This document shows positions 11,753 through 22,816 of a DNA stretch of 64,000 nucleotides, piece by piece. The DNA is taken from positions 4,865,340 to 4,929,339 of the forward strand of contig OZ257154.1 of assembly GCA_965279325.1 (NCBI GenBank). The letters run 5' to 3'. Each line of letters begins with the position of its first letter. Positions within the stretch are counted from its first letter, which is position 1. Source of the stretch: Burkholderiales bacterium (lineage in GTDB: Bacteria > Pseudomonadota > Gammaproteobacteria > Burkholderiales > Ga0077523). The position numbers were made by a program, and so were the translations under genes. A model generated the notes under the pieces. It searched no databases. It was not told where the DNA came from and saw nothing but the letters and a program-made list of their open reading frames with translations.

Positions 11753-12778
11753 TTGGCGGGTACCAGCGTGTCCCACCAACTGCTAAACATGACGATCCGG
11801 CGCAACGATTTCGACGTCACCGACCAGATCCGCACCACCGATCCCCAGGCGGTGCAGGACGAAGTCTCGCGCATCTATGCGCAGTTGTACGAACCGGCGT
11901 CCGACGCAGCCCTGCGGCGTCCCTTCACCGACGCCTGCCGCCTCTACCGCGGCGAGTATCCCGGCTACCGGCCCTGCGATACCGCGTACCACAACCTCCA
12001 GCACATCCTCGACGTGACGCTGGCGATGGCGCGCCTGATGGATGGCTACGAGCGTGCGGCCCGCCGGGTGGCGCCGCTCGGCGAGCGCCTGTTCCGTTTC
12101 GGCGTGGTGCTGGCCCTGTTCCACGATGCCGGCTACATCCGCTTGAAGCACGACTCCCGCAGCCACAACGGCGCGGCCTATACCCGGACCCACGTCTCCA
12201 GGGGCGCTCGCTTCCTCGAGCAATACCTGATCGACATCGGGCTCGGCGACCTCGAACCGCTCGCCCGGCCGCTGGTGCATTTCACCGGCTACGAGATGGC
12301 CGTCGCCGACATCGACGTGAGCGATCCGACGCTGCGCATGCTCGGACAACTGCTCGGTTCCGCGGACATCGTCGCGCAGATGTCTGATCGCTGCTATCTC
12401 GAGAAATGCCGGGATCGGCTGTACCCGGAGTTCGTCATCGGCGGCATCGCGGAGCGCCACCTCCATGACGGCGGCACGGAGATCCTGTTCGCCTCTGCCG
12501 AGGATCTCGTGGTGAAGACGCCGCATTTCTACCGCAGCGCCGCTGCGCGACTCGAGCGCGACCTCCAAGGCGTGTACCGGTTTGCGGAGCCGCATTTCCG
12601 CGGCCAGAATCTCTACCTCGAGGAACTCGAGAAGAACATCCGCCACGCCGAGACCGTTGCGGCCGAACACGATCTGACCTTGCTGCGCCGCACTCCGCCG
12701 CCGGTGACGTCAGAGGATGTTGTCATCGAGCTGCCGCCGTCGTTCGGGTGGCCGGTCAAGTCCCCAGTCGCAGCATGA
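11753..12778 (+). CDS. HD-domain metal-dependent phosphohydrolase-like protein
   Basis: YHNLQHILDV and VLALFHDAGY form an H...HD signature. The start is uncertain (TTG at 11753 or ATG at 11789). The 3' end overlaps the convergent qor by 23 nt. Confidence 0.6.
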   Translation: MAGTSVSHQLLNMTIRRNDFDVTDQIRTTDPQAVQDEVSRIYAQLYEPASDAALRRPFTDACRLYRGEYPGYRPCDTAYHNLQHILDVTLAMARLMDGYERAARRVAPLGERLFRFGVVLALFHDAGYIRLKHDSRSHNGAAYTRTHVSRGARFLEQYLIDIGLGDLEPLARPLVHFTGYEMAVADIDVSDPTLRMLGQLLGSADIVAQMSDRCYLEKCRDRLYPEFVIGGIAERHLHDGGTEILFASAEDLVVKTPHFYRSAAARLERDLQGVYRFAEPHFRGQNLYLEELEKNIRHAETVAAEHDLTLLRRTPPPVTSEDVVIELPPSFGWPVKSPVAA

Positions 12779-13760
12779 TCTTGCCCACGTGCGCGCTCGA
12801 TTCCATGAGCGCGTGGGCCTTCGACGCCTCGGCCAGCGCGAACGTCGAGTGAATCACCGGCCGGATCTTGCCGGCCTCGATCAGCGGCCACACCTTTGCA
12901 CGTAGCGCGGCTGCTATCGCGGTCTTGAACTCGACGGTGCGCGGCCGCAGCGTCGAGCCGGTGATCGTGAGCCGCCGGTAGAGAATGTCGCCCATGTCGA
13001 GCGTCGTCGTGGTGCCACCGAGGAACGCGATGATCGACAGCCGTCCATCGGCGGCCAGGCATTTCAGCTCCCGCGGCACGTAGTCGCCGCCGACCATGTC
13101 GAGGATCACGTCCACGCCCTTGCCGCCGGTCAGCTCCTTCACCACCGCGACGAAATCCGCGGTGCGGTAGTTGATCCCGCGTTCCGCCCCGAGCGCTTCG
13201 CACGCCCGGCATTTTTCATCACTCCCCGCGGTCGCGAACACGCGGTGGCCCATCGCACGCGCGAGCTGGATGGCGGTCACGCCGATGCCGCTCGATCCAC
13301 CCTGCACGAGCAGCGTTTCGCCTGGAGCAAGCCGACCGCGCTCGAACACGTTGATCCACACCGTGAAGAAGGTTTCCGGCAACGACGCGGCTTCGACCAT
13401 GCTGAAACCCTTCGGTACCGGCAGGCAATGTCCCGCCGGCGTCGCGCAATACTGTGCGTAGCCGCCGCCCGGCGTCAGCGCGCACACCGCGTCCCCGATC
13501 TTCCACTGCATCACGTCCGCCCCGACCTGCACGATCGTGCCTGCCACTTCCAGTCCGGGCAGGTCGGATGCTCCCGGCGGCGGGTTGTAGCTGCCCGCGC
13601 GCTGGAAGCAGTCCGGGCGGTTGACGCCGGCCGCCGCCACCTCGATCAGCACTTCATGCGGCTTGATGGCCGGCATGGGTCGCGTCGTGGGCTGAAGCAC
13701 TTCGGGACCGCCCGGTTTCGTGATCTCGATGGCGGTCATGGTGGCGGGCAATGCGGTCAT
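12756..13760 (-). CDS. NAD(P)H:quinone oxidoreductase (zeta-crystallin/PIG3-type MDR family)
   Basis: EVLIEVAAAGVNRPD, LVQGGSSGIGVTAIQLA (Rossmann motif), GKIMLRL C-terminus. An alternative start lies at 13739. Confidence 0.85.
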   Translation of the reverse strand: MTALPATMTAIEITKPGGPEVLQPTTRPMPAIKPHEVLIEVAAAGVNRPDCFQRAGSYNPPPGASDLPGLEVAGTIVQVGADVMQWKIGDAVCALTPGGGYAQYCATPAGHCLPVPKGFSMVEAASLPETFFTVWINVFERGRLAPGETLLVQGGSSGIGVTAIQLARAMGHRVFATAGSDEKCRACEALGAERGINYRTADFVAVVKELTGGKGVDVILDMVGGDYVPRELKCLAADGRLSIIAFLGGTTTTLDMGDILYRRLTITGSTLRPRTVEFKTAIAAALRAKVWPLIEAGKIRPVIHSTFALAEASKAHALMESSAHVGKIMLRLGT

Positions 13761-14993: not shown

Positions 14994-15434
14994 CTAGCTG
15001 CCGACGGTGATCCGAAGGAGGGCGATGCGCATCATTTCCGGCAACGCCGTCGGTCGCCGCGTCGCGCGATCCACGTACACGTGGACGAAATGTCCCTGTG
15101 CGGAGGCGAGCGGCTCGTCGTTGCGGAACAGTCCTACTTCGTAGCGGACGCTGCTGGTTCCGAGCTTCACGACCCGCAGCCCCGCGTGCACCAGATCGGG
15201 GAAGCTGATCGGACTGAAATAGTTGCACTGGGTTTCCACGACCAGTCCGACCACGGTGCTGCGTTCGATGTCCAGTACGCCCTGCTCCATCAGATACTGG
15301 TTCACGACCGTGTCGAAGTACGAGTAGTAGACGACGTTGTTCACGTGGCCGTAGACGTCGTTGTCCATCCATCGCGTCGAGATCGAACGGAAGTGATGGT
15401 AATCGGCGCGCGCGTCGGGTTTCGGTTTGGTCAT
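14994..15434 (-). CDS. Acyl-CoA thioesterase, 4HBT/YbgC hotdog fold
   Basis: STRWMDNDVYGHVNNVVYYSYFD is the hotdog thioesterase signature. The start lies 1 nt after the stop of the upstream DMT gene. Confidence 0.8.
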   Translation of the reverse strand: MTKPKPDARADYHHFRSISTRWMDNDVYGHVNNVVYYSYFDTVVNQYLMEQGVLDIERSTVVGLVVETQCNYFSPISFPDLVHAGLRVVKLGTSSVRYEVGLFRNDEPLASAQGHFVHVYVDRATRRPTALPEMMRIALLRITVGS

Positions 15435-15435
15435 G

Positions 15436-16344
15436 TCAGTGGTTTTGTGCCTGGTCTGCGGCGTCGGTCTTGCGACGCATGTGGCGCCAGTTCACGGCGA
15501 GCAGGCCGGCGATGATGATGACCAGCATGCCCGCGAGCGAGCCGCCGTCGGGAAACTCGCGAAACGCGATCCACGCGAGCAGCGTGGACCACACGAGTTG
15601 CGTGTAGACGAAGGGTGCGAGCGCCATGGGCGAGGCGTGTTCCACGGCACGGATCAGGAGGAAGTGGCCGGTGCCGCCCAGTGCGCCGATGGCGAGCATC
15701 ATTCCCACCTGCGGCATCGTCGGCGTCTGCCAGGCCAACGGCAGGGCGAGGCTGGTGAGTCCCGCGCCGACGAGTGCGGTATAGAACAATGTCGTGACCG
15801 GATGATCGCGGCCAGCCACCTTGCGCGTGGCGATCTGGTAGAGCGCGAACAGCAGCGCCGTCGCGAGCGGAAACAGCACCGTGGGACTGAACACCGCGCC
15901 GCCCGGGCGGATGATCACCACCACCCCGATGAAACCCAGCACCACGGCGGCCCACTGCCGGCGCGACACGCGTTCCCTTAACAGCGGCCCCGAAAGGACG
16001 GTGACCAGCACCGGTCCGACGAAGCTGATGGCGGCCGCCTCCGCGAGGGGCAGGAACTTGAGCGACAGGTAGAACATGGCGGTGGAACTCACCAGCAGCA
16101 CGCCGCGCAGGATCTGGAGTCCGGGATGCTCGGTGCGGACCAACCCGAAGCCCATCCGGGGAACGAACAGGATCAGCATGAACAGCAGGTGGGTGCTGTA
16201 GCGGGCCCAGATGAGTGGCCCGAGCGGATACGACTTCAGCATCAGCTTCGCGAGAGTGTCCATGGACGAAAACATGAACACCGCCATCATCATCATGCCT
16301 ACGCCACGAAAGAAGTGCTTATGGTGGTGATCGTGGCTGCTCAT
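15436..16344 (-). CDS. DMT-superfamily (EamA) transporter
   Basis: 302-aa product with about ten hydrophobic helices and a two-EamA-repeat layout. N-terminus MSSHDHHHKH. The ATG overlaps the enolase-like stop (ATGA). Confidence 0.8.
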   Translation of the reverse strand: MSSHDHHHKHFFRGVGMMMMAVFMFSSMDTLAKLMLKSYPLGPLIWARYSTHLLFMLILFVPRMGFGLVRTEHPGLQILRGVLLVSSTAMFYLSLKFLPLAEAAAISFVGPVLVTVLSGPLLRERVSRRQWAAVVLGFIGVVVIIRPGGAVFSPTVLFPLATALLFALYQIATRKVAGRDHPVTTLFYTALVGAGLTSLALPLAWQTPTMPQVGMMLAIGALGGTGHFLLIRAVEHASPMALAPFVYTQLVWSTLLAWIAFREFPDGGSLAGMLVIIIAGLLAVNWRHMRRKTDAADQAQNH

Positions 16345-17642
16345 CGAAGCGGTTGCCCTGCGCCGGCCGGAAGCGCGGCACGTCCCGAGAAGCGCGCCGC
16401 CTTGCCGAGCGATTCCTCGAGCCGCAGCGCTTCGTTCCACTTGGCCATCCGTTCGGAGCGCGTGAACGAGCCGACCTTCAACTGGCCTGCGTCCCAGCCG
16501 GTGGCGAGATGCACGATCGTCACGTCCTCGGTTTCGCCGGAACGCGCGGACACGATGGTCCCGAATCCCGCTGCCTTGCCCGCTTCGAGCGCGGCCCGTG
16601 TCTCGGTGATGGTGCCGGCCTGGTTGGGCTTGATCAGGACCGCGTTGCAGGCGCGATCCGACGCCGCGGCCCGCACGCGATCGGCGTTCGTGACGAGGTA
16701 GTCGTCGCCGATGATCTGGAGGCTGCCGCCCGCCGCCGTGGTGAAGGCGCGCATGCCTTCCGCGTCGTCCTCGGCCAGCGGGTCCTCGATGGAAGCGACG
16801 GGGTAGCGGCGGCACCAGTCGAGCAGCATCGCGATCATGCCGTCGCGATCGAGCTCGCGGCCTTCCAGCCCCAGCGTGTAGCGGCCGTCGCGTCCGAATT
16901 CCGAAGCGGCAATGTCGAGCGAGATGGCGACTTCGTCGCCGGCCCGGTAGCCCGCCTTCTCGATCGCGCGGGCGAGCATCGAGAGTGCGTCCTCGTTCGA
17001 GTCGAACATTGGCCAGAAGCCGCCTTCGTCTGCGACGCCGGCGAGCTTGCCTGCGTCGCTCATCAACTGTCCGGCCGCGCGATACACCTCCGCGGTCATC
17101 ACGAGCGCTTCGTCGAAGCTCTCGGCGCCGAGCGCCATCACCATGAAGTCCTGGATGTCGACGCGCCGGCCCGCATGCGCACCGCCGCCGAAGATCTGGA
17201 TCTCCGGGAGCGGCAGGCGCACGGGACGCCCACCCGCGAGGTAGGACCAGAGCGGTTCGCGCCGAGACGCCGCTGCGGCATGCAGTACCGCCATGGATAC
17301 GGCGATGGTCGCGTTGCCGCCGAGACGTGCCTTGTTCGGCGTGCCGTCGAGCGCGATCAGCGCCGCATCGACGGCGGCCTGGTCGGTCGCGTCCATGCCA
17401 TCGAGACGGTTGGCAATCTCGCCGCTGACGTTCGCGACCGCGCGAGCCACGTCGAGACCACCCAGCAGTGGGCCACCGTCGCGCAGGTCGATGGCCTCAT
17501 GCGTGCCGCGCGAAGCGCCGGCCGGGGCGATGGCGCGGCCGATGGCGCCGCCCGCGAGGTGTACTTCGGCTTCGACGGTGGGGCGGCCGCGGGAGTCCCA
17601 GACACGGCGGCCGAGGATGCGGCTGATGGTGGAGTTGGTCAT
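16341..17642 (-). CDS. Enolase-family paralogue with non-canonical active-site residues
   Basis: Colinear with enolase: DSRGRPTVEAEVHL, AGASRGTHEAIDLRDG, GGGAHAG, VADEGGF, LDIAASEF, SIEDPL, IGDDYLVTN, LIKPNQAGTITE, QLKVGS. However, IQDFMV replaces IQEFMI and VSARSGETED replaces SHRSGETED. Confidence 0.8.
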   Translation of the reverse strand: MTNSTISRILGRRVWDSRGRPTVEAEVHLAGGAIGRAIAPAGASRGTHEAIDLRDGGPLLGGLDVARAVANVSGEIANRLDGMDATDQAAVDAALIALDGTPNKARLGGNATIAVSMAVLHAAAASRREPLWSYLAGGRPVRLPLPEIQIFGGGAHAGRRVDIQDFMVMALGAESFDEALVMTAEVYRAAGQLMSDAGKLAGVADEGGFWPMFDSNEDALSMLARAIEKAGYRAGDEVAISLDIAASEFGRDGRYTLGLEGRELDRDGMIAMLLDWCRRYPVASIEDPLAEDDAEGMRAFTTAAGGSLQIIGDDYLVTNADRVRAAASDRACNAVLIKPNQAGTITETRAALEAGKAAGFGTIVSARSGETEDVTIVHLATGWDAGQLKVGSFTRSERMAKWNEALRLEESLGKAARFSGRAALPAGAGQPLR

Positions 17643-17717
17643 CTGGATCGAAGGTGGCTGCGCAGGGTGCGCGAATGCTGGAACGACGTTGCTGGGGGAT
17701 GTTCGGAGCGGAAACGA

Positions 17718-18116
17718 TCAGGCCGTGAGTTCGATGCGATTGCCGTCGGGGTCGAGGACGACGCTCTCGTAGTAGCCGTCACCCGTGCGGCGCGGTCCAT
17801 CGACGACCGGTACTCCAGCCTCGCGCAGGTGCGCGGTCAGCGAATCGACGGCGGCATCGGAACCGAGCGCCAGCGCGATGTGAGCGTAGCCCGTCGCAGG
17901 AGGTGCAGGCGCATCGCCGACGGCGGGCGTCTGCATCACCTCGATCCTTGCGCCGGAGGTGAAACGCAGGAAATAGGAGCGGAACTGCTTCTTCGGATTT
18001 TCGTAGCCGTCGTTGGACTCGGCGCCGAACCAGCGGACATAGAAATCGCGGAGCTGTTCGATGTTCCGCGACCAAAGGGCGACATGTTCGATGCGGGCCG
18101 ACACGGCGTTCACCAT
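17718..18116 (-). CDS. VOC (glyoxalase/bleomycin-resistance/dioxygenase) family protein
   Basis: 132 aa. RIEHVALWSRNIEQLRDFY...GYAHIALALG...YYESVVLDPDGNRIEL is a typical paired beta-alpha-beta-beta-beta VOC pattern. Overlaps the kinase stop by 7 nt. Confidence 0.75.
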   Translation of the reverse strand: MVNAVSARIEHVALWSRNIEQLRDFYVRWFGAESNDGYENPKKQFRSYFLRFTSGARIEVMQTPAVGDAPAPPATGYAHIALALGSDAAVDSLTAHLREAGVPVVDGPRRTGDGYYESVVLDPDGNRIELTA

Positions 18117-19075
18117 TTCGCGATCTCTGCGCGCCAGGCGTCGCGGATCGCAGCGAGCCTGTCCACCGGTTGCAGCAGCAGCGGGCGCGCCACGCGGCGC
18201 ACCTTCTCGCGGTCGCGGTTGTCGGAGATGTACTCGACCGGCGACTTGCCGTCCACGCGCGCGAGAAACAGCCCGGGCAACAGGTGGGCGACGCGGGCTT
18301 CCAGGCCAGCCACGGGCTCCCACGCGACGCCCGCCAGGTAGGTCTCGAACAGCGTCGTGAAGCCTTGCAGGTAAACGGCCCACCAGCGCGGGCGCCACAC
18401 GCATTTGAGCAGCAGGTGATTCAGGCAGAAGGCCAGGTCGAAGGCCGGGTCTCCGTACCACGCGCACTCCGCATCGACGAACACGGGTCCGTGCGGACCC
18501 ACGAGGATGTTCTTCGGGCTCACGTCACCGTGCACCAGCGTGCGCTTGGTCGATGCCGTCACTCGGACCAGTTCCTCCAGAGCCGGCGCGCAATCGGGAT
18601 GGGCGCGCGCCGTGGCTTCGAGATAGGGCTCGAGGCGGATCGGAAAGAAGATGTGATCGGTGGCGAAACGCGTCGCGAGATCGCTGCGGTCCGCGGTGCG
18701 CGAGTGGATGAGGGCGAGCCGGCGACCCACTTCGCGCGCAGTGGAGCCATCCACGATGCCGTCGCGCAACTGGAGCTTCCACACCGGATGGTCGGCTGGA
18801 TCGAGCCAGGCCATCGCGAACAGGTTCGACTCCGCATCTTCGCCCAGGATCGCCGGTACGGCGTCGGGCGCGATGGCGCCCGCCACCCGCATCCATTCCA
18901 CCTCGAAGCGATTGCGCTCCGTCGGCGCACGCCAGTCGGCCTCGACCTTCAGCTTCGGCAGCGCGCGCTTGATGCAGATCGAGCCCCGCGGCAGGACGGC
19001 GCGGAAGATGTCCGATGAAACGCCCCCCGCCAGCGGCTCCAGTGCGAGCGATTCGCCAGGGTTGAGCAACCCCAT
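18110..19075 (-). CDS. APH-fold phosphotransferase, methylthioribose-kinase-like
   Basis: LEPLAGGVSSDIFRAV (nucleotide loop), ICIKRALPKLKV, catalytic loop LVHGDVSPKNILV, VDAECAWYGDPAFDLAFCLNHLLL. These are the last 321 codons of a spurious 1439-aa track ORF. The start is uncertain (ATG 19075, or an upstream TTG near 19111). Confidence 0.7.
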   Translation of the reverse strand: MGLLNPGESLALEPLAGGVSSDIFRAVLPRGSICIKRALPKLKVEADWRAPTERNRFEVEWMRVAGAIAPDAVPAILGEDAESNLFAMAWLDPADHPVWKLQLRDGIVDGSTAREVGRRLALIHSRTADRSDLATRFATDHIFFPIRLEPYLEATARAHPDCAPALEELVRVTASTKRTLVHGDVSPKNILVGPHGPVFVDAECAWYGDPAFDLAFCLNHLLLKCVWRPRWWAVYLQGFTTLFETYLAGVAWEPVAGLEARVAHLLPGLFLARVDGKSPVEYISDNRDREKVRRVARPLLLQPVDRLAAIRDAWRAEIAKW

Positions 19076-19222
19076 GCGTTCCAGCGCGGGGCGAAAGGCG
19101 GCGTCGTGATCCTCCAAGGCGGTGACGGCGTAACATCGGGGCGTCGCGCGCTCTCTCCGAAACCTGCCCGTCGCGACGAAATGATCGGACTGAAACTCTA
19201 GCACAGCGGACCCCGCGAACCC

Positions 19223-20710
19223 ATGAAGGTCATCCTCGCGCTGGACCAGGGCACCACGAGCTCGCGCGCGCTCGTCTTCGACGCGGCCGGCCGGATCATG
19301 GGACTCGGACAGCGGGAGCTTCCGCAGATATATCCGCAGCCGGGATGGGTCGAGCAGGACCCCGAAACGATCTGGGCCACGCAGCTCGCGACTGCACGCG
19401 AAGCCCTCGGGCAGGCCGGGCTCGCGGCACGCGACGTCGCGGCCATCGGCATCACGAACCAGCGTGAGACCACCGTCGTCTGGGAGCGCGCCACGGGCCG
19501 GCCGATCGCCAACGCCATCGTGTGGCAGGACCGGCGCACGGCCGCCCGGTGCGAACAGCTGCGGGCCGATGGTCTCGAGGGGCTGTTCCAGTCGCGGACG
19601 GGTCTCGTGCTGGATGCCTACTTCTCGGGCACCAAGCTCGCGTGGATCCTCGATCACGTGCCGGGTGCTCGGGCGCGTGCGGAGCGCGGGGAACTCGCCT
19701 TCGGCACCGTGGATGCCTGGCTCATCTGGAAGCTGACCGGTGGCCGGGTGCATGCGACCGACGCGAGCAACGCATCGCGCACGTTGCTCTACGACATCCG
19801 CGCTCGGGGCTGGAGCGACGAGCTGCTCTCGTCCATCGGCGTACCGCGCGCGGTACTGCCCACGGTGTGTGCGTCCAGTGGCGTCGTGGCGGAGACGGAC
19901 GCCGACGTGCTGGGTGCGTCGATCCCCATCGCCGGAATCGCGGGCGACCAGCAGGCCGCGCTCTTCGGTCAGCGCTGCATCACGCCTGGCCGCGTCAAGA
20001 ATACCTACGGCACCGGCTGCTTCATGCTGATGCACACGGGGGAGGTCGTTCCCGAGTCGCGTCACAATCTCCTGGCGACGGTCGCATGGCAAGTCGATGG
20101 CCGGACGGAGTACGCACTGGAAGGCAGCGTCTTCATCGCCGGCGCGGCGGTGCAGTGGTTGCGCGACGGCCTCGGTCTCATCGGGCACGCGGCGGAGGTC
20201 GAAGCGCTCGCGGCTTCGGTGCCGGACACGGACGGCGTGTACTTCGTGCCGGCGTTCACCGGCCTGGGCGCACCGCACTGGGACCCGCACGCGCGTGGCA
20301 CGGTGTGCGGCATCACGCGCGGGACGACTCGCGCGCACCTGGCGCGAGCGGCGCTCGAAGCCATCGCGTTCCAGACTTCGGACATCCTCGACTGCATGCG
20401 CGCGGACGCCGGCATCGAACTGGCTGACCTGCGCGTCGATGGCGGTGCGACACGCAACAATCTGCTGATGCAATTCCAGGCCGACCTGCTCGGCGCACCG
20501 GTGGTGCGGGCGAGCAACCCCGAAGCGACCGCCATGGGGGCGGCGATGCTGGCCGGGCTCGCGGTGGGAACCTGGCCGGACACGGCGGCGCTGGATGCCC
20601 TGTGGCGAACGGAGAAGACCTTCGTGCCTGCGATGGAACGATCCAGGGTCGATCGAATGACCGCCCGCTGGCACGCAGCGGTGGAACGAGCGAAAGGATG
20701 GGCAGCCTGA
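19223..20710 (+). CDS. glpK: Glycerol kinase
   Basis: [57 protein letters not shown]. Full-length FGGY kinase of 495 aa. Confidence 0.95.
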
Positions 20711-20764
20711 GCGCGACGACCGGTCGCGCACACAACAACGAAACCTGATTCGGGGAGGACAGAG

Positions 20765-22816
20765 ATGGCCGCTTACACGACCGAAAGCATCCGAACGGTG
20801 GCCCTGGTCGGTCACGGTGCCGCGGGCAAGACCACACTCGCGGAGGCGCTGCTGCGAGGGTCCGGAACCATCGCGAGCAATGGCAGCGTAGAGCGTGGCA
20901 CCACCGTGAGCGACCATCTGCCGCTCGAGAAGGAATACCGCCACTCGCTGCAATCCTCGGTGCTCCATCTCGAAACCCAGGGGACGCGCGTGCATCTGCT
21001 CGACACGCCCGGATTTCCCGATTTCATCGGCCAGTCCATCGGTGCGCTCGATGCCGTCGAGACCGCGGCGGTGGTGGTGAGCGCGCAGTCCGGCATCGAG
21101 ATGATCACCTCCCGCATGATGCAGTGGGCCGCGAAGCGCAGACTGTGCCGCCTTGTGATCGTCAACAAGATCGACGCCGACAACATCGACTTGCCGGGAC
21201 TGCTGAGCGAGATCCAGGCGACCTTCGGCAAGGAATGCCTGCCCATCAACCTGCCGGCGGGGGGTGGCACACGGGTCGTAGACTGCTTCTTCAATCCCGG
21301 CGGCGAATCGGATTTCCTGTCGGTGGCGCAGGCTCATCGCGCGCTGGTCGACCAGGTGGTGGAGGTCGACGAGGAATTGATGGCGCTGTACCTGGAGCAG
21401 GGCGAGATCGCGCCGGAGCAGTTGCACGCGCCGTTCGAGCAGGCGCTGCGCGACGGCCACCTCATTCCCGTCTGCTTCGTTTCGGCACGCAACGGCGCCG
21501 GCGTCGCGGAGCTGCTCGACGTGTTCGCGAAGTTGCTGCCGAATCCGGCCGAAGGCAACCCGCCGCTGTTCTACAAGGGCGAAGGCGCGGACATCGTCGA
21601 ATTCCGTTCCGATCCCGACCCGGGAAAGCACGTGCTGGCGCACGTCTTCAAGATCGTCATCGACCCTTTCGTCGGCAAGCTGGGCGTGTTCCGCGTGCAC
21701 CAGGGCACGGTCACGCGCGACACGCAGCTCTTCGTCGGCAGCGGCCGCAAGCCTTTCAAGGTCGGGCACCTGTTCCTGTTGCAGGGCAAGGACCACGTCG
21801 AGGTTCCCACCTGCGTCCCGGGCGACATCGCTGCCGTGTCGAAAGTGGAGGAGATCCAGTTCGACTGCGTGCTGCACGATTCCCACGACGAGGATCACAT
21901 CCACATGCGGCCGCTGGAGTTTCCGGTGCCCATGCACGGGCTCGCGATCCAGCCGAAGCGGCGCGGCGAGGAGCAGCGCCTGTCCGATGCCCTGCACAAG
22001 CTGACGGCGGAGGATCCGACCCTGAAGGTCGAACACGATCCGCATCTCAACGAGTCCGTGTTGCGCGGCCTGGGCGAGTTGCATCTGCGTGCGACCATCG
22101 AACGCATGGCCCAGCAGTACAAGGTGGAGATCGAGACGCGGCCGCCGCGCGTGCCCTATCGGGAAACCATCACCGCACCGGCCGAGGGACACAGCCGGCA
22201 CAAGAAGCAGACGGGTGGGGCCGGGCAATTCGGCGAAGTGTTCCTGCGGGTGGAGCCGCTCGGCCGCGGTGAAGGGTTCGAGTTCGTCGACGCGGTGAAA
22301 GGTGGTGTCATTCCCACGCAACTCATTCCGGCCGTGCAGAAAGGTGTGGAGCAGGTGCTCGCCTCGGGACCGTTGGCGGGATTCCCCGTGCAGGATCTGC
22401 GCGTCACGGTTTACGACGGCAAGCATCACCCCGTCGATTCCAAGGAAGTCGCCTTCGTCGCGGCAGGCCGCAAGGCATTCCTCGATGCGTTGGCGAAGGC
22501 CGGTCCGATCGTGCTCGAACCCATCGTCAACGTCGAGGTGTTCTGTCCTGAGGCGAACATGGGTGACATCACCGGCGACCTGTCGGCGCGTCGAGGTCAG
22601 ATCACGGGCACGCGCGCATCGCAGGTATCGACGCTGACGGTAAGCGGCATGGCGCCGCTGGCGGAGTTGAACGGCTACGCCTCACGCCTGAAGGCATTCA
22701 CCGGCGGCCACGGCTCGTACTCGATGGAGCTCAGTCACTACGAGCCCGCACCGCCGACGGTGCAGCAGCAACTCGCGGCCGACTACAAGGCGACGCGGAA
22801 ACAGGAAGAAGACTGA
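20765..22816 (+). CDS. Elongation factor G paralogue (EF-G II-like) with a divergent G domain
   Basis: Five-domain EF-G architecture. G1 is GHGAAGKTT, G3 is DTPGFPDF (Phe at the catalytic His position) and G4 is NKID. Confidence 0.85.
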   Translation: MAAYTTESIRTVALVGHGAAGKTTLAEALLRGSGTIASNGSVERGTTVSDHLPLEKEYRHSLQSSVLHLETQGTRVHLLDTPGFPDFIGQSIGALDAVETAAVVVSAQSGIEMITSRMMQWAAKRRLCRLVIVNKIDADNIDLPGLLSEIQATFGKECLPINLPAGGGTRVVDCFFNPGGESDFLSVAQAHRALVDQVVEVDEELMALYLEQGEIAPEQLHAPFEQALRDGHLIPVCFVSARNGAGVAELLDVFAKLLPNPAEGNPPLFYKGEGADIVEFRSDPDPGKHVLAHVFKIVIDPFVGKLGVFRVHQGTVTRDTQLFVGSGRKPFKVGHLFLLQGKDHVEVPTCVPGDIAAVSKVEEIQFDCVLHDSHDEDHIHMRPLEFPVPMHGLAIQPKRRGEEQRLSDALHKLTAEDPTLKVEHDPHLNESVLRGLGELHLRATIERMAQQYKVEIETRPPRVPYRETITAPAEGHSRHKKQTGGAGQFGEVFLRVEPLGRGEGFEFVDAVKGGVIPTQLIPAVQKGVEQVLASGPLAGFPVQDLRVTVYDGKHHPVDSKEVAFVAAGRKAFLDALAKAGPIVLEPIVNVEVFCPEANMGDITGDLSARRGQITGTRASQVSTLTVSGMAPLAELNGYASRLKAFTGGHGSYSMELSHYEPAPPTVQQQLAADYKATRKQEED

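Follow-up and report, generated by a model that had tools for sequence, protein, structure and literature searches.

An MtnK-like kinase and a divergent enolase encoded side by side: a possible two-step route from a glycerate-like acid to phosphoenolpyruvate

A kinase of the aminoglycoside phosphotransferase (APH) fold and a specialised enolase, encoded next to each other in several bacterial phyla, may constitute an undescribed two-step route from a glycerate-like acid to phosphoenolpyruvate (PEP), a reading to which we assign a probability of about one half. In the proposed scheme, the MtnK-like kinase would transfer phosphate from ATP to the 2-hydroxyl of a free 2,3-dihydroxy C3 acid, most likely D-glycerate, with L-glycerate or another 3-substituted lactate as possible substrates. 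The partner enolase would then remove the 3-substituent by Mg-dependent enolase chemistry to yield PEP, and the pair would funnel the leftover acid of oxidative sugar, sugar-acid and other catabolic routes directly into PEP. In the window, the 64-kb stretch of DNA analysed here, the pair lies back to back with glpK and in the company of three probable passengers, a VOC protein, a DMT transporter and a thioesterase.

Open reading frames and their translations define five co-directional genes on the minus strand at positions 14994-19075, in the order kinase, VOC, enolase-like protein, DMT/EamA transporter and hotdog thioesterase. The successive junctions are a 7-nt overlap, a 75-nt gap, an ATGA overlap and a 1-nt gap. 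Upstream of the kinase and divergent from it lies a true glpK (19223-20710; TIGR01311, 710.9 bits versus a cut-off of 590), which is context and lies outside the conserved kinase-enolase pair. The original prediction had described this order, strand and set of junctions, the divergent glpK, an APH/MtnK-like kinase with an HGDxxxxN loop and an atypical, probably paralogous enolase, and each of these descriptions was borne out by the analyses presented here. The features are as follows.

14994..15434, minus strand: hotdog-fold YbgC/4HBT-type acyl-CoA thioesterase, 146 aa (PF13279 and PF03061)
15436..16344, minus strand: DMT/EamA-family membrane transporter, 302 aa (two EamA repeats, PF00892)
16341..17642, minus strand: divergent enolase-clade protein, 433 aa (Enolase_N and Enolase_C; TIGR01060)
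17718..18116, minus strand: single-domain VOC/glyoxalase-like protein, 132 aa (PF00903, 75 bits)
18110..19075, probably 18110..19117, minus strand: APH-fold MtnK-like kinase (PF01636), 321 aa from ATG or 335 aa from TTG
19195..19205, minus strand: extended -10-like element TGTGnTAnAGT between glpK and the kinase (positions invariant when 9 intergenic regions were aligned)
19223..20710, plus strand: glpK, glycerol kinase, divergent from the kinase operon (TIGR01311)

The TGTGnTAnAGT element, which a two-hexamer consensus scan missed, is a candidate promoter element of the kinase operon. A sequence scan found neither a sigma-70 consensus nor an intrinsic terminator inside the cluster, which is compatible with, but no proof of, co-transcription as a single transcript. 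Rfam scans of the window and the leader returned no RNA elements, and the 64-kb window is devoid of a canonical eno.

The conserved unit is the kinase-enolase pair and not the five-gene set. The kinase flanks the clade enolase in 79 of 84 loci, with contig-edge cases among the five exceptions, and the two reading frames typically overlap by 4 nt. Percent identities of the two proteins co-vary (r = 0.89), and natural kinase-enolase fusion proteins exist (P0362, P0506 and P0397), the single-polypeptide form being known from 6 contigs of one lineage and 2 of a second, divergent one. At both canonical eno loci examined (E. coli and Azospirillum p3) the kinase neighbour is absent. Adjacency, overlaps, co-variation, fusions and the kinase-free canonical loci together argue for functional coupling. 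Among 185,579 species-representative genomes the module occurs at no fewer than 580 places, and hosts of the pair include Burkholderiales, Hyphomicrobiales, Rhodospirillales, Streptomyces, Acidobacteriota and Chloroflexota. When the immediate neighbours were clustered across loci, they proved to be mostly unrelated and often housekeeping genes; such a solitary position in many genomes would be natural for a module that needs only two steps to feed into central metabolism. Full-text literature searches found nothing on the kinase-enolase pair, and neither the NCBIfam models nor the PDB covers it.

The enolase-like protein shares its two-domain architecture (PF03952, 152.9 bits; PF00113, 293.6 bits) with the housekeeping enolase (EC 4.2.1.11; E. 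coli Eno, yeast Eno1) and scores 477.7 bits against TIGR01060, whose equivalog cut-off is 300. Clade members are 62-91% identical to one another and 44-49% identical to canonical enolases, whereas canonical enolases of different phyla are 64-75% identical, closer to each other than the divergent clade is to them. Residues were compared in an alignment with the E. coli and Azospirillum enolases. Glu168 and His373 are invariant in the canonical enolases compared; in the clade, Asp replaces the former in 320 of 321 members and Ala the latter in all 321, and the canonical motifs QEF (Glu168) and SHRSGETED (His373) occur only in the two canonical controls. The clade signature further comprises an Arg-Arg after His159, a Trp in DEGGxWP, GDDYL and NQAG. 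Retained in all aligned clade members, as in housekeeping enolase, the metal ligands Asp246, Glu295 and Asp320 (yeast numbering), the catalytic residues Lys345, Glu211 and Lys396, the phosphate binders Arg374, Ser375 and His159, and Ser39. Because the metal, base and phosphate-binding residues are kept, the clade enolase is predicted to bind and deprotonate a 2-phospho carboxylate as enolase does, and to turn the kinase product into PEP. Positions 168 and 373 lie on the leaving-group side, judging from the yeast enolase structure, and from the added Arg-Arg and Trp one may suspect that the substrate differs from 2-phosphoglycerate (2-PG).

The genomic setting also differs from that of the housekeeping enzyme, the clade enolase being found outside the pyrG-eno type of context and either partnered by or fused to the kinase. 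In Azospirillum brasilense Sp7 a clade member and a canonical eno reside on separate replicons, and an accessory plasmid of B. pseudomallei carries a clade member. Together with the low identity to canonical enolases, these occurrences support the view that the window enolase is atypical and behaves as a paralogue. The PDB holds no solved structure of the clade, the best match being the ordinary enolase 4rop.

The kinase matches the APH family PF01636 with 55.1 bits (Pfam gathering score, 23.2). Its catalytic loop reads LVHGDVSPKN, in agreement with HGDxxxxN, and it also carries VDAECAWYGDPAFDLAFCLNHLLL; Lys36, Glu58, Asp184, Asn189 and Asp201 are invariant across 77 family members. Only MtnK entries match it in a search of PDB sequences. 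An AF2 model (pLDDT 93) was compared with known structures by Foldseek, which gave MtnK 2pyw as the best match (TMq 0.82, 16-19% identity) and TMq values of 0.78-0.84 for the leading matches 2pyw and 2olc. The nearest structures are small-molecule kinases, namely MtnK, PsiK and choline kinases, with PRPK/Bud32-type proteins at low rank. MtnK and the window kinase share the HGDxxxxN loop and the D-x-E ... GDP-FD segment; the window kinase, however, is about 65-80 residues shorter than MtnK (about 400 aa) and has an enolase partner. A role as MtnK in methionine salvage was ruled out by a TIGR01767 score of 56.2 bits against a cut-off of 275 and by the lack of salvage genes (mtnA, mtnB and others) among the neighbours in the window or the annotated related loci. 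The protein is thus an MtnK-like APH-fold enzyme, but not MtnK. Its start is probably TTG 19117, 14 codons upstream of ATG 19075, since the added stretch shows protein-level conservation among relatives and aligns with the fusion proteins, and most homologues have 333-340 aa.

Three classes of glycerate kinase have been distinguished: GlxK/GarK (K00865), MOFRL (K11529) and the plant type (K15918) (GapMind 2026 preprint). The window kinase has no homology to any of the three, Pfam and NCBIfam giving APH-type matches only. Its predicted reaction is nonetheless the phosphorylation of glycerate, or of a closely similar acid, at the 2-hydroxyl, and the pair may act in a glycerate-kinase-like manner, yet outside the known glycerate kinase families. 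Several points weigh against the proposed scheme. The nearest relatives of the kinase phosphorylate the anomeric hydroxyl of a sugar rather than an acid, APH-fold kinases fall outside the three known classes, the window operon contains no glycerate-producing enzyme, and the linkage to PEP carboxylase described below is confined to three genera.

Substrate clues come from the genes that accompany the pair elsewhere. The gene that most frequently shares an operon with the pair encodes a D-2-hydroxyacid dehydrogenase akin to glyoxylate/hydroxypyruvate reductases and PGDH, present at 29 of 94 loci and both adjacent and co-directional at 18. In the sugar clusters, FAH hydrolases of the 2,4-diketo-3-deoxy-aldonate type, closest to 2,4-didehydro-3-deoxy-L-rhamnonate hydrolase (426 and 352 bits), are accompanied by aldose dehydrogenase-type SDRs, a lactonase, a true UxuA and sugar ABC transporters. 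Such FAH-type hydrolases release pyruvate and a 2-hydroxy acid, lactate or glycolate (PMC6336799); by analogy, a 6-hydroxy sugar as the source would give glycerate. One of the fusions comes after a KDG-type operon containing DHDPS-family, PfkB and KDPG-aldolase genes, an arrangement that resembles the branch of the non-phosphorylative Entner-Doudoroff pathway ending in glycerate, 2-PG and PEP. A cluster on Rhizobium plasmids has the order ppc, 2-hydroxyacid dehydrogenase, kinase, and in a Microvirga cluster PEP carboxylase is present and citrate synthase follows; PEP carboxylase is linked to the pair only in Hyphomicrobiales clusters of three genera. Its presence in these clusters suggests PEP as the product. 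In Paracoccus and Roseibium the pair is bordered by TTT carboxylate transporters, and some of the pair-bearing catabolic operons are under LacI or GntR regulators. Taken together, the dehydrogenase, FAH hydrolases, sugar transporters and PEP carboxylase point to glycerate, or an acid much like it, being converted first to a 2-phospho acid and then to PEP.

The proposed order of reactions is identical to that of glycerate 2-kinase and enolase in the non-phosphorylative Entner-Doudoroff, serine-cycle and glucarate/tartrate pathways. The GlxK/GarK and MOFRL/TtuD pathways are likewise encoded in sugar-acid clusters, with hydroxypyruvate-reductase-like dehydrogenases and PEP carboxylase; their kinases, however, are unrelated in fold to that of the pair, and these pathways use the housekeeping enolase. 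Were the substrate plain D-glycerate, the housekeeping enolase would suffice, as in E. coli, and there would be no explanation for the universal pairing or for the consistent loss of Glu168 and His373.

A tentative alternative, less probable than the general scheme, is that the kinase produces a non-canonical 2-phospho acid that the housekeeping enolase cannot use, and that a remodelled enolase is needed to convert it to PEP or a PEP analogue. The acid could be 2-phospho-L-glycerate, 2-phospho-3-sulfolactate (with loss of sulfite) or a C4 compound, for instance 2-phospho-2,3-dihydroxybutanoate or 2-phosphotartrate. Such an intermediate would account for the obligate pairing and the fusions as well as for the changes of Glu168 to Asp and His373 to Ala and the new Arg-Arg and Trp, and it agrees with the distance of the clade from canonical enolases, the affinity of the FAH partners to an enzyme of an L-sugar pathway and the TTT carboxylate transporters beside the pair. 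On the other hand, the commonest partner dehydrogenase is D-specific, and the true D-mannonate dehydratase and the KDG-type operons point to D-glycerate. The Arg-Arg motif and the TTT transporters had brought sulfolactate into consideration. It is only a minor variant, as none of the annotated contexts contains a sulfite exporter or sulfite oxidase, and the retained acidic Glu211 and Asp168 suit a hydroxyl rather than a sulfonate leaving group. C4 products are argued against by the PEP carboxylase linkage. To our knowledge, the enolase family proper has long been held to be single-function. It is possible, though we lean against it, that the pair represents a new reaction in that family together with a fourth, APH-fold class of hydroxy-acid 2-kinase, in which the Asp168/Ala373/Arg-Arg enolase would turn, for example, 2-phospho-L-glycerate or 2-phospho-3-sulfolactate into PEP. 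In phosphinothricin biosynthesis, an enolase-family paralogue reportedly forms carboxyphosphonoenolpyruvate, acting on a 2-PG analogue in a specialised pathway. That case is biosynthetic, belongs to a Streptomyces phosphonate cluster and has no APH kinase partner, and no phosphonate genes were found in the contexts of the pair that were examined.

The original prediction had read the whole operon as a single pathway devoted to some unusual hydroxy or sugar acid. Its chemical core, phosphorylation followed by enolase-type dehydration, fits the data best and can be narrowed by the active-site substitutions, the fusion proteins and the sugar-acid and PEP-carboxylase contexts. The extension to all five genes fared poorly and is improbable. 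Tight junctions, a common strand and the failure to find an internal terminator in the window favour it, and the same five genes recur in the two closest relatives (L001 and L024), but among the related loci the set is complete only in these two, whereas the pair extends across phyla. Synteny of the five genes in relatives, on which the prediction had been staked beforehand, is largely lacking: among related loci, VOC occurs in 3 (L001, L010 and L024), DMT in 9, the thioesterase in 12 and glpK in 12. Most close relatives lack VOC, which is a lineage-specific insert between kinase and enolase; synteny of VOC, DMT, thioesterase and glpK with the pair is confined to one Burkholderiales clade, outside which DMT and thioesterase are missing; and in other phyla the pair stands alone or keeps quite different company. 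For both VOC and thioesterase the only resemblance is to structural-genomics proteins that are themselves uncharacterised, the nearest PDB entries being 3e5d ("putative glyoxalase I") and 2av9/2o5u (uncharacterised thioesterases), respectively. We propose that VOC, DMT transporter and thioesterase are clade-specific passengers picked up by the pair.

Least probable of all is a spare glycolytic isozyme that the kinase either regulates, for instance by protein phosphorylation, or has no functional relation to: the enolase does exceed the NCBIfam equivalog cut-off and is named phosphopyruvate hydratase by all sources, and the APH fold is related to protein kinases, as the low-rank PRPK/Bud32-type matches illustrate, but the structures nearest the kinase are those of small-molecule kinases, the fusion, the 4-nt overlaps and the LacI/GntR-regulated catabolic operons fit consecutive metabolic steps, and the active-site substitutions are unexpected in a simple isozyme.

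In present annotation the enolase goes by that name or by "phosphopyruvate hydratase", and the kinase by "aminoglycoside phosphotransferase family protein" or some comparably generic kinase name. Metabolic reconstructions hence list a second glycolytic enolase plus a kinase of antibiotic type in place of a probable coupled catabolic module. If the kinase is truly a glycerate 2-kinase, it represents a fourth, unrelated class that would fill a gap in genomes without the known ones. If the intermediate is instead non-canonical, the pair would add a rare new substrate inside the enolase family itself and an ATP-neutral route by which an otherwise dead-end acid enters central metabolism. In Streptomyces, rhizobia and Burkholderiales the module also marks several sugar and ring-cleavage-like clusters that are as yet uncharacterised, and could help to identify their end product.

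In a second type of cluster, a two-domain VOC protein follows the enolase; a kinship of the window VOC to it was considered and rejected, as the two have no specific relationship. The DMT protein gives weak matches to carboxylate and amino-acid DMT models, and it might carry the acid substrate.

The kinase and enolase of the pair lie in a run of five co-directional minus-strand genes, and the reading frames and Pfam/NCBIfam families agree with the original prediction:

18110-19075, minus strand, kinase (APH)
17718-18116, minus strand, VOC protein (Glyoxalase/VOC)
16341-17642, minus strand, enolase-like protein (Enolase_N and Enolase_C)
15436-16344, minus strand, DMT transporter with two EamA repeats
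14994-15434, minus strand, hotdog thioesterase (4HBT)
19223-20710, plus strand, genuine glpK, divergent from the kinase

The junctions are exactly those described (7-nt overlap, 75-nt gap, ATGA overlap and 1-nt gap), and the operon does diverge from glpK. Genes for an aldo-keto reductase and a PIG3-type quinone oxidoreductase lie convergently downstream of the cluster, inside which a promoter/terminator scan showed no terminator or sigma-70 consensus. Rfam families gave zero matches in the window. The motif TGTGnTAnAGT (19195-19205), invariant in nine related loci at a distance of 18-28 nt from the start codon of glpK, may serve the kinase operon as an extended -10 promoter or be a regulatory site shared with glpK. 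Directly 3' of glpK is an EF-G gene (20765-22816, plus strand; NF009891, 1010 bits). A 341-aa protein with no NCBIfam match (11753-12778, plus strand) is kept in about eight of the related loci that were clustered (cluster c19), mostly close to the PIG3-type quinone oxidoreductase (12756-13760); its pattern YHNLQHILDVT ... FHDAGY appears HD-domain-like by eye.

In a scan with one genome per species, genes for close relatives of the enolase turned up at 580 places or more, 80 of which were fetched. The hosts include Burkholderiales, Bosea, Labrys, Methylobacterium, Mesorhizobium, Rhodospirillales, many Streptomyces, Vicinamibacterales and one Dehalococcoidia genome, and their enolases are 64-91% identical to that of the window. 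Of 84 clade loci searched by tblastn with the window proteins, 79 have the kinase next to the enolase, and the remaining five include contig-edge cases. Where genomes have been called or annotated, a 4-nt overlap joins the two genes, and their identities co-vary across loci (r = 0.89). In the same searches the VOC gene was found in only three loci, the DMT gene in nine, and the thioesterase gene and glpK in 12 each, all within one Burkholderiales clade. Five-gene synteny did not hold up in relatives, the full set being present only in loci L001 and L024. Since the VOC, DMT and thioesterase genes are confined to one clade and the pair is kept, the five-gene operon is a local elaboration and selection acts on the kinase-enolase pair as a unit. 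Three MAG records with a Burkholderiales-type locus (L019, L042 and L006) are titled 'uncultured Bifidobacterium sp.' or 'Bordetella parapertussis', which look like binning or labelling errors.

The window enolase shares 44-49% identity with those of E. coli and Azospirillum; the Azospirillum enzyme shares 64-75% with its canonical counterparts in Listeria, Bacillus, Bacteroides and Streptomyces, and clade members from different phyla share 62-91%. Like the housekeeping enzyme, it keeps in alignment (yeast numbering) the Mg ligands D246, E295 and D320, the base K345, and the phosphate-binding R374, S375 and H159, together with E211, K396 and S39. In contrast, the clade differs from housekeeping enolases at four places, counted in 321 sequences: Glu168 is Asp (320/321), His373 is Ala (321/321), the HA-DNN-type segment after His159 becomes HA-x-RR (approximately 316/321), and DEGGxAP becomes DEGGxWP (321/321). 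Most members also replace GDDLF with GDDYL and NQIG with NQAG. In canonical enolase, the hydroxyl that leaves 2-phosphoglycerate (2-PG) is flanked by Glu168 and His373. Their joint loss and the gain of two arginines and a tryptophan suggest an altered C3 side of the pocket. No solved structure of the clade exists in the PDB, NCBIfam has no model dedicated to it, and every naming source calls its members phosphopyruvate hydratase or enolase. The enolase behaves as a paralogue, as had been proposed: Azospirillum brasilense Sp7 carries a clade member on replicon p1 and canonical eno on p3, an accessory B. pseudomallei plasmid carries another, and the window holds no second enolase.

The start of the kinase is ambiguous because its frame remains open far upstream, as a 1439-aa ORF (18110-22429, minus strand) antisense through glpK and part of the EF-G gene; this ORF is a high-GC artefact and not a gene. 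Translation probably begins at TTG 19117, 14 codons upstream of 19075, which yields 335 aa and would make the annotated 321-aa form too short. The protein sequence of the extra codons is conserved in relatives, can be aligned with distant fused homologues and forms a confident helix in the structure model, and most kinase homologues have 333-340 aa. The codon at this position is TTG in the window, GTG in L001 and L024, and ATG in more distant relatives. The predicted resemblance to MtnK stands at the level of fold: the AlphaFold model (pLDDT 93) superposes best on MtnK (TMq 0.78-0.84), followed by PsiK, LxmK and choline kinases, and PDB matches by sequence are restricted to plant and Bacillus MtnK. 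However, identity in the superposition is 16-19%, the best NCBIfam model, MTRK, scores 56 bits against a cut-off of 275, and no methionine-salvage genes lie beside the kinase. Thus, the protein is a small-molecule kinase that resembles MtnK without being MtnK. Invariant features of the family are the Lys/Glu pair, HGDxxxxN, the Mg-binding Asp and also several Arg/Lys residues away from the nucleotide site. A preprint of July 2026 still lists only three classes of glycerate kinase, none with the APH fold.

An exhaustive search over 1.84 billion cluster representatives found single polypeptides, on metagenome contigs, in which an N-terminal APH domain is followed by an enolase at the C-terminus. 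P0362 (770 aa) has a 90% cluster mate, P0506, on five further contigs (P0362/P0506 in L097 and L099-L101), and P0397 (745 aa; L098) occurs on two contigs. The window kinase is 40% (E = 5e-57) and 35% (E = 2e-47) identical to the fusion kinase halves. The enolase halves keep Asp168 and have Ala or Gly at 373, with EGA (P0362) or PGG (P0397) in place of Arg-Arg. Such fusions are classic evidence for consecutive steps. One fusion ends an operon for a D-serine-dehydratase-like PLP enzyme, RidA, an SDR, a DHDPS-family enzyme, PfkB and a KDPG-type aldolase, which resembles an amino-sugar-acid/KDG route with a non-phosphorylative branch; that branch classically ends in glycerate, 2-PG and PEP. The gene for the other is flanked by those for a LacI regulator and an FAH hydrolase, and its cluster also encodes a sugar ABC transporter, an MR_MLE dehydratase and a 2-hydroxyacid dehydrogenase. 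Canonical-type enolases occur in other apparent fusions, with PGK, a PGI fragment, guanylate kinase, MerR and GT2 (P0434, P0415, P0436, P0393 and P0490).

The neighbours of the pair are highly diverse, and many genomes have it on its own amid housekeeping genes. Of 94 loci, 29 contain a D-isomer-specific 2-hydroxyacid dehydrogenase whose relatives are glyoxylate/hydroxypyruvate reductases and PGDH; in 18 loci its gene is adjacent and has the same orientation. In L096, kinase, enolase and dehydrogenase genes follow in that order, joined by 4-nt overlaps. FAH-family hydrolases occur in 27 of the 94. In the sugar clusters of B. pseudomallei and Paracoccus, their closest match is 2,4-didehydro-3-deoxy-L-rhamnonate hydrolase (426 and 352 bits), and they neighbour aldose-dehydrogenase-type SDRs, an SMP-30 lactonase, a true UxuA, LacI/GntR regulators and sugar ABC transporters. 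Such hydrolases yield pyruvate and a 2-hydroxy acid, which is lactate in the case of 6-deoxy sugars and glycolate in that of pentoses (PMC6336799); by analogy, a 6-hydroxy hexonate would give glycerate. Two Rhizobium plasmids carry ppc, dehydrogenase and kinase genes in that order in one cluster, and in Microvirga PEP carboxylase, then citrate synthase, lies in the cluster of the pair. This clustering of PEP carboxylase points to PEP as the product.

We propose a two-step shunt to PEP, which, with glycerate as substrate, has a probability of about 0.5: the kinase would phosphorylate glycerate or a very close analogue at its 2-hydroxyl, and the product would be converted by the dedicated enolase. 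Plain D-glycerate leaves the obligate pairing and the active-site signature unexplained. The same mechanism acting on L-2-PG, phosphosulfolactate or a C4 acid would account for both the replacement of Glu168 and His373 and the bypassing of the housekeeping enolase; it is nevertheless the less probable version, as the dehydrogenase that accompanies the pair is specific for D-isomers, D-sugar acids are the substrates of UxuA and of the KDG-type operon, there is the link to PEP carboxylase, and no sulfite-handling genes were seen in annotated contexts. The originally predicted five-gene pathway fits poorly and is improbable; the window VOC protein, DMT transporter and thioesterase remain putative passengers, and import of the acid by the DMT protein is only a guess. 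A regulatory or functionally unrelated kinase fits poorly too and is more improbable still.

Full-text literature searches found no description of the kinase-enolase pair. What is new is an enolase-family clade with a fixed partner kinase, both of known kinds, and there is a realistic chance of a new reaction within the enolase family proper.

In three unrelated genomes (L093, L095 and L096) the kinase or the pair has a family III CoA-transferase (formyl-CoA transferase-like, 306 bits) nearby; taken with the window thioesterase, this hints faintly at an upstream CoA-ester step. A second, widely shared cluster type surrounds the same enolase in Streptomyces (L029, L046, L047, L055, L062, L067 and L070), Rhizobium plasmids (L081 and L088), Pandoraea (L089), Pseudoduganella (L091), Microvirga (L093) and Cupriavidus (L095). 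It comprises a cupin, the enolase, a two-domain VOC protein (HpaD-like, 290 bits against a cut-off of 321), a CMD-family protein, Zn-ADH, FMN reductase, an HpaG-like FAH protein, a LacI regulator, a BCAA-type ABC or MFS transporter, a 2-hydroxyacid dehydrogenase and the kinase, sometimes with PEP carboxylase and citrate synthase, and looks like an uncharacterised catabolic pathway of the ring-cleavage type.
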